Positions 10,557 to 10,745 of a DNA stretch of 49,036 bases are shown one piece after another. Source of the DNA: a virus (lineage: Duplodnaviria; Heunggongvirae; Uroviricota; Caudoviricetes); the IMG/VR virus record IMGVR_UViG_2531839476_000015, positions 1 through 49,036 of that record; one strand, given 5' to 3'. The notes under the pieces are model-generated. The model ran no database searches. It saw nothing but the letters and a program-made list of their open reading frames with translations, and was not told the origin of the DNA. Each line of letters starts with the position of its first letter. Position 1 is the stretch's first letter. The translations under genes were made by a program, and so were the position numbers.

Positions 10557-10745
10557 AAAAAAGCCTCATACAGTTGATGAGGCAATACTAATTTGATCGT
10601 CAAAACAAATCAAGACCCAAGAAACGATCGTTGATTCCTTTCTTTGTGACAATACAGTCAAATCAAGTTTTACAAGGATTACTTTTCTTCGATTACATTA
10701 AAAGCCGCACTTCTGCGACCATCCATCACCCAAATGTCTCTTCAC

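Follow-up and report, generated by a model that had tools for sequence, protein, structure and literature searches.

A Shine–Dalgarno-masking hairpin beside the promoter of a lambdoid prophage cassette gene: a possible insulator against read-through

The window (by which we mean the whole 49,036-nt stretch of DNA that was analysed) is a lambdoid prophage immunity region in which the minus strand carries, in order, the repressor gene cI, a DUF3024 gene, a terminator-like hairpin, the hairpin examined here, the gene that it precedes, a strong intrinsic terminator, a 44-aa ORF and N (Table 1), with about 145 nt of non-coding sequence between the two hairpins. The DUF3024 gene begins 9 nt past the cI stop codon with its own GGAGG sequence, and is common to 933W (as L0084) and many Stx phages; a literature search on DUF3024 returned no match.

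Table 1. Features of the cI-to-N interval of the window (positions are those of the window, and all features lie on the minus strand).
Feature	Position	Strand	Remarks
cI	11810..11097	-	Upstream repressor gene
DUF3024 gene	11087..10746	-	Translationally coupled to cI; PADLOC candidate PDC-S43 (E 1e-41)
Terminator-like hairpin GGTCGCA-GAAG-TGCGGCT, then TTTAAT	10720..10703	-	Follows DUF3024 gene; left boundary of swapped cassette
Sigma-70-like cassette promoter TTGATT-17-TAGTAT	10613..10585	-	Adjoins stem; conserved geometry
-35 TTGATT	10613..10608	-	Promoter-like element
GATC	10598..10595	-	Within the 17-nt spacer between -35 and -10
-10 TAGTAT	10590..10585	-	Ends 1 nt before stem
Hairpin 5' arm GCCTCAT	10583..10577	-	Contains anti-SD CCTC; between -10 hexamer and predicted start; covarying in 15 lineages
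Predicted transcription start, A	10578	-	From promoter geometry; inside 5' arm, 7 nt after -10, preceded by C
Hairpin loop CAACTGT	10576..10570	-	Free variation in sequence and length (3 to 16 nt) in relatives
Hairpin 3' arm ATGAGGC	10569..10563	-	Holds SD GAGG (10567..10564)
T6 run	10562..10557	-	SD-to-ATG spacer; terminator-like U-tract in the window's lineage only, not conserved in relatives
ATG of cassette gene	10556	-	Directly after T6
Cassette gene (phrog_2602)	10556..10024	-	Single ORF in all relatives, mostly of 161–194 aa; split in window
121-aa 5' fragment	10556..10191	-	Part of 177-aa ORF
A7 homopolymer	10235..10229	-	Frameshift site; A8 in intact allele
63-aa fragment	10215..10024	-	Part of 177-aa ORF
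Strong intrinsic terminator GCCCCG-AGGGAA-CGGGGC, then T5	10025..10002	-	Follows cassette gene
44-aa ORF (phrog_21154)	9850..9716	-	Travels with cassette
N	9268..8894	-	Beyond 44-aa ORF

Homology with 933W spans cI and the DUF3024 gene, stops at 10704 and resumes at about 9707, and homology with Sakai ends at 10700. In 933W the slot is occupied by L0083-stk-L0081-tM, and in VT2-Sakai by a 39%-identical allele of the cassette gene with the same boundaries. These homology breaks and the differing slot contents identify the approximately 1 kb from 10703 to 9707 (minus strand) as an exchangeable cassette. The recombination boundaries of the cI-to-N slot are fixed at 10700–10704 and 9699–9707, and the cargo differs by phage. 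Depending on the genome, the cassette gene is found behind cI, dinI, a Dam methylase gene, a DUF3024 gene or an unrelated 430-aa ORF, and it occurs in E. coli/Shigella, Salmonella, Enterobacter, Citrobacter, Serratia and Yersinia, as would be expected of a mobile unit (the scan of genome contigs contributed three loci only). With such varied genes upstream, the cassette gene must bring its own promoter, and insulation from foreign promoters would be useful to it.

The sequence-only reading saw a downstream pair of genes here, coding for 121 and 63 aa, and suspected a toxic effector. Comparison with the intact allele indicates that the pair is one 177-aa gene broken by a 1-base deletion. The cassette of phage SH2026Stx1 is identical save for one extra A, which gives a single 177-aa ORF; the phrog_2602 PHROG profile (173 positions) covers residues 1–171 of the product, and all 53 of the 53 homologues recovered, from the hosts listed above and others, are single proteins (104–214 aa, mostly 161–194 aa). 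The A7 allele is rare, being present in four of 25 close loci (the window, L023, L024 and L124), with A8 in the other 21, and the 121-aa product is found on 7 contigs versus 662 for the 177-aa product. We considered whether A7 might be about as frequent as A8, given that the 63-aa product is annotated on 613 contigs versus 662 for the 177-aa product, and rejected this as most loci annotated with the 63-aa protein carry A8; such entries are frequent because the annotator chose an internal ATG, not because of a frameshift. A7 itself may be a real mutation, the result of slippage or a sequencing error.

We note that the internal ATG at 10215 (Met115) has a strong SD sequence, AAGGAG, 9 nt upstream, and that the 63-aa C-terminal ORF alone is often annotated even where the 177-aa frame is intact (A8; loci L118–L125). 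The C-terminal domain might also be produced separately, and the A-AAA-AAA-AGG sequence with its rare AGG codon could be a candidate site for low-level -1 frameshifting or transcriptional slippage. The AlphaFold model of the protein (mean pLDDT 71) has four helices in its N-terminal domain, followed by a Lys-rich linker which is disordered and by a beta-beta-alpha unit at the C terminus, and the N-terminal domain is weakly similar in structural comparison to integrase core-binding domains (E about 0.4). Foldseek found no PDB match at E ≤ 0.001, and Pfam, PADLOC and PDB sequence profile searches of the cassette protein returned no match, so that nothing supports the toxic effector. The 44-aa ORF, which matches nothing in Pfam, lies after the cassette terminator in nearly all contexts and is more conserved than the main gene (86–97% where the 177-aa protein is at 70–79%, and 88% where it is at 56%), and it is probably a functional partner of the main gene.

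The hairpin is exactly as originally described, with the minus strand reading TAGTAT-T-GCCTCAT-CAACTGT-ATGAGGC-TTTTTT-ATG from 10590 to the start codon at 10556, and with the sole SD-like motif, GAGG, confirmed inside the 3' arm, 7 nt from the ATG. RNAfold gives a folding energy of -10.1 kcal/mol, and the region proposed for folding (10540–10600, minus strand) does fold as had been predicted, but in this 61-nt frame the z score is only -1.24 and 25 of 200 shuffles fold equally well. For the 40-nt frame from the -10 hexamer to the ATG the z score is -2.24, with 4/200 shuffles folding equally well. The SD pairing probability (0.9998 in the -45 to +12 frame) is the highest among the 26 SD-bearing ORF starts in the window, three of which reach at least 0.95. 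As a single sequence the hairpin is therefore borderline and only mildly unusual, and it is conservation among relatives that lifts it above chance. A search of 9300..12200 on both strands with the Rfam 15 covariance models gave no match at E ≤ 1. A LexA box (CTGT-N8-ACAG) over the loop was also considered and rejected, as only the left half-site is there.

The stem lies immediately downstream of a promoter-like element (Table 1) which has a consensus score of 8/12; the intergenic region holds just one other candidate, and the stock promoter scan missed the element because its threshold was 9/12. All lineages of the close clades have TTGAT[TA]-17/18-TAnnAT geometry upstream of the gene, with differing spacer sequences, and in other clades there is a promoter at the equivalent place. 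No second conserved promoter was found further upstream in the intergenic region. In every lineage with the hairpin the stem starts 0–3 nt past the -10 hexamer, and nearly all lineages have TCA at -2 to +1. Sigma-70 RNA polymerase usually starts at the seventh base after the -10 hexamer, at a purine preceded by a pyrimidine, and by this rule the start in the window is predicted to be A10578, within the 5' arm; by promoter geometry, every lineage likewise has its predicted +1 within this arm. With such a start the native mRNA would have the sequence AUCAACUGUAUGAGGCUUUUUUAUG and lack the anti-SD. In the lineage of Yersinia phage YP3 (L116) a different upstream sequence may put the 5' arm inside the transcript.

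The region also contains a number of repeats. A GATC site at 10629..10626 (minus strand) lies about 13 nt upstream of the -35 hexamer, with a second in the promoter spacer, and most diverged lineages have both at comparable positions, frequently as CGATCG. By analogy with IS10 and IS50, the paired sites suggest a Dam-methylation-sensitive promoter or SeqA binding. The sequence CTTGATTTG occurs twice on the minus strand (10659..10667 and 10606..10614, once as the -35), AATCAA is found at 10631..10636 (minus strand), and the inverse motif AATCAAG recurs 40–90 nt upstream in relatives; these CTTGATTTG/AATCAAG repeats look like operator repeats for some regulator. The window also has a TTGN7TTG repeat of the CII type at the -35, which was rejected because relatives do not conserve it. 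A further palindrome, ATTACC-N5-GGTAAT, is located at about -125 to -108 from the ATG in L019, L100, L105, L107, L109 and L128, and is absent in the window; its innermost pair covaries (T-A, C-G, A-T) at constant spacing, and in L107 and L111, both without the SD hairpin, a T-run comes after it and makes it terminator-like, which it is not elsewhere.

We compared the upstream regions of 15 distinct lineages of the cassette with 49–100% protein identity. MAFFT alone misaligned the 3' arm of the -10-to-ATG segments, and the alignment was hand-anchored on CCTC/GAGG and N-padded, which biases the following counts towards structure. In this alignment 91.1% of cells are paired, compared with 35–54% when the 3' partner is slid by 1–3 columns, both sides have changed at seven of the 11 pairs (13 cells), and none of 500 shuffles reached the observed pairing values; it should be noted that the 15 lineages are kin, and perhaps only 4–6 of these events are independent. 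Next to CCTC/GAGG the window group has a G-C pair, which is replaced by A-U in the Salmonella/Enterobacter group and by U-A in that of Yersinia pseudotuberculosis. In L129 (49% amino acid identity) the stem is kept through an inner C-G to G-C swap by which the SD becomes GGGC, in L126 identical arms enclose an unrelated loop, and Yersinia phage YP3, with its different 5' flank, still has CTCATAA opposite TTATGAG. All one-sided changes (L012, L086, L105, L128, L025 and L129) are C-to-U or A-to-G and leave a U·G pair in the sense strand; this restriction to one strand points to sense-strand RNA. The CCTC-to-GAGG distance is 11, 13, 15 or 22 nt among relatives and the loops are unrelated, which argues against a protein operator of fixed spacing. 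Single-sequence z scores are -2.1 to -4.3 in most hairpin lineages, compared with -0.8 to +1.9 in lineages without the hairpin. A conserved and covarying stem of this kind favours a sense-strand RNA stem over a DNA operator, and on these comparisons we consider that SD masking is a selected feature, with the qualification that the conserved CCTCA could partly reflect the promoter discriminator and start site.

The hairpin is not essential to the family, as it is weak in L003 (with an A·C mismatch and a z score of +0.3), L128 and L116, and missing from L107, L111, L113, L114 and L089. Family-wide SD masking was therefore rejected, there being none in lineages at 56–59% and 44–47% identity. Within the Sakai-type clade the hairpin is found in L030 and L055 and not in the sister lineages L054 and L074.

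With the 5' arm between the conserved -10 hexamer and the predicted +1, the stem should form only in transcripts that start further upstream, and this makes insulation the best-supported reading. Our preferred explanation, to which we would give somewhat less than an even chance, is that the hairpin may be an RNA-level insulator of a portable prophage cassette, in the style of the fold-back structures of IS10 and IS50. Transcripts entering from upstream would carry both arms and have their SD locked in the stem; in the window these would come from pRM through cI and the DUF3024 gene, and elsewhere from dinI and other genes. Some of this read-through RNA may also terminate in the window's lineage at the U6 after the stem. 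Transcripts from the cassette's own promoter would instead begin inside the 5' arm, with a leader of 22 nt in which the SD is free and the spacer A/U-rich, and so be translated. Read-through into this position is plausible because lysogens of Phi24B express the genes that follow cI in this slot (PMC4651098).

The predicted accessibility of the SD in the short transcript is not clean. On the minus strand, in transcripts without the 5' arm, GGCUUUU (10559..10565) can pair weakly with AAAAGCU (10541..10547, codons 4–6), leaving the AUG in the loop, and with 60 nt of coding sequence the SD pairing probability in own-promoter transcripts is still 0.5–0.9, so that the read-through and own-promoter forms are not separated by this measure.

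Next in probability, and in our view unlikely, is that the hairpin is a 5'-UTR element of the native mRNA, with transcription starting upstream of 10583 from an unrecognised promoter or from the cI operon, and with the stem limiting translation, either constitutively or under certain conditions, until melting, cleavage or competition relieves the block. This is close to the original suggestion that the downstream genes are silent until the RNA is remodelled, of which the sequestered SD and its pairing, conserved with compensatory changes, have stood up. A conserved stem holding the SD would suit such a leader, and there is a precedent in the IS200 tnpA leader, which it resembles (PMC4513863). 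More than 100 nt of conserved upstream sequence with repeats also belongs to the cassette, and L116 may have a different promoter whose transcript includes the 5' arm. Against this, just 1 nt separates the stem from the sole conserved promoter-like element, all lineages have their predicted +1 within the 5' arm, no second promoter is conserved upstream, and the hairpin matches no known riboswitch or leader family. Given the predicted start, the native mRNA should lack the hairpin, and no remodelling or cleavage would be needed.

Somewhat less probable again is that the hairpin is primarily an intrinsic terminator or attenuator which ends the pRM-cI-DUF3024 transcript, as the sequence-only reading had also proposed. 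The terminator scan lists the site (7 pairs, 4 G-C, a loop of 7 and the tail TTTTTTAT), and a 7–8 bp stem followed by T6 has the stable stem and U-tract of an intrinsic terminator. The T6 tail is seen in lineages in which the cassette lies behind cI or the DUF3024 gene (the window, L012, L126 and L103) and also in L088, and the Phi24B lysogen expression (PMC4651098) makes transcription into the slot plausible here as well. However, the tails of lineages that keep the stem are T6, TTTGTT, TTTT, TTCT, TATC, AACGTTCA and ATTTT, and the U-tract is lost or shortened in most of them, from which we conclude that termination is not the selected property. L107 lies behind cI and yet has no hairpin, a terminator-like hairpin is already provided after the DUF3024 gene, and a site which is 1 nt past a -10 hexamer and holds the SD of the next gene would be unusual for an operon terminator. 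The T6 run doubles as the A/U-rich spacer between SD and AUG. Part of the attenuator claim survives, in that the stem and U6 could terminate transcription in the window's lineage, and RNA arriving from cI and the DUF3024 gene could be stopped or masked there, but the U-tract needed for this is not conserved.

It is also improbable, slightly more so than termination, that the hairpin has no selected function and is simply an SD GAGG beside a C-rich discriminator and start (CCTCA), inherited by descent. The modest single-sequence statistics, the five lineages without the hairpin and the three in which it is weak, and the non-independence of the relatives are what would be expected if this were so. 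Pairs flanking CCTC/GAGG nevertheless covary (G-C, A-U, U-A and C-G), in L129 an inner pair has changed on both sides at a cost to the SD, and the unrelated 5' flank of L116 still supplies the complement of its 3' arm. Finally, the inverted repeat is very unlikely to be a DNA operator for a dimeric repressor over the transcription start, as the half-site spacing varies from 11 to 22 nt and G·U pairs are tolerated on the sense strand only, despite a perfect 7-bp palindrome centred near +1 and a cassette protein whose N-terminal domain weakly resembles DNA-binding core-binding domains.

The closest parallels to the proposed insulator are found in insertion sequences. In the fold-back inhibition of IS10 and IS50 the 3' arm of a stem covers the translation start and the 5' arm lies upstream of the element's own transcription start, so that masking is confined to transcripts which begin outside the element. 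Tn10/IS10 is reported to be protected from external promoters by an RNA structure which sequesters the start of the transposase gene (Davis, Simons and Kleckner 1985, cited in PMC13181058). The cassette resembles IS10/Tn10 and IS50/Tn5 in being mobile, in having its own weak promoter and, if the predicted start is right, a stem with the 5' arm upstream of that start, and also in having GATC sites in or near the promoter, the IS10 and IS50 promoters being Dam-sensitive with GATC so placed (PMC4265352). It differs from them in having no transposase and no terminal inverted repeats; it is not a transposon but a prophage accessory unit exchanged by recombination at fixed boundaries, its transcription start is a predicted one, and no antisense RNA is evident in it. 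The left end of IS200 combines a terminator against impinging transcription with an SD-sequestering stem which lowers 30S binding (PMC4513863), and the likeness here is in having two serial devices against unwanted expression; however, the IS200 stem lies within the native tnpA 5' UTR, whereas the native mRNA of the cassette is predicted to lack the 5' arm.

In its promoter, ORF and strong terminator the cassette also resembles phage morons, the promoter-gene-terminator units found between conserved lambdoid genes, and it shares the cI-to-N slot and a lysogen-type expression context with lambda rexAB and with L0083-stk-L0081 and the terminator tM of 933W. Compared with intrinsic terminators, it has in the window a G+C-containing stem followed by U6, but the U-tract is not conserved and the hairpin overlaps a promoter and an SD instead of closing a transcription unit. 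Stems that mask an SD, intrinsic terminators and insulation from read-through are each well established; we know of no description of an SD-masking stem fused to a moron promoter, and what may be new is insulation like that of the insertion sequences combined with the promoter of an accessory cassette of prophages, in the slot between cI and N.

A broader proposal, which we offer as speculation and consider improbable, is that the cassette is a Dam-sensitive, self-insulated module with a conserved GATC pair and CTTGATTTG repeats, encoding a two-domain DNA-binding-like protein and its highly conserved 44-aa partner, with the fold-back stem cancelling all transcription from outside. Wherever the cassette was inserted, it would be expressed only in a particular DNA state, such as the unmethylated or hemimethylated one that directly follows infection or replication. 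If this were true, the slot between cI and N would hold a regulated module of a new kind, for superinfection or defence.

For the window itself, the local annotation becomes one frameshifted 177-aa gene with its own promoter rather than a cI-coupled operon with a gated toxin pair. The proposed masking would work by a well-known mechanism, and we regard its interest as modest. If the hairpin is indeed an insulator, prophage morons would be using the trick of insertion sequences, with the ribosome-binding site hidden in any transcript begun outside the unit, and so staying under their own control wherever they are recombined. In slots such as that between cI and N, a position downstream of pRM would then not imply co-expression with the repressor.
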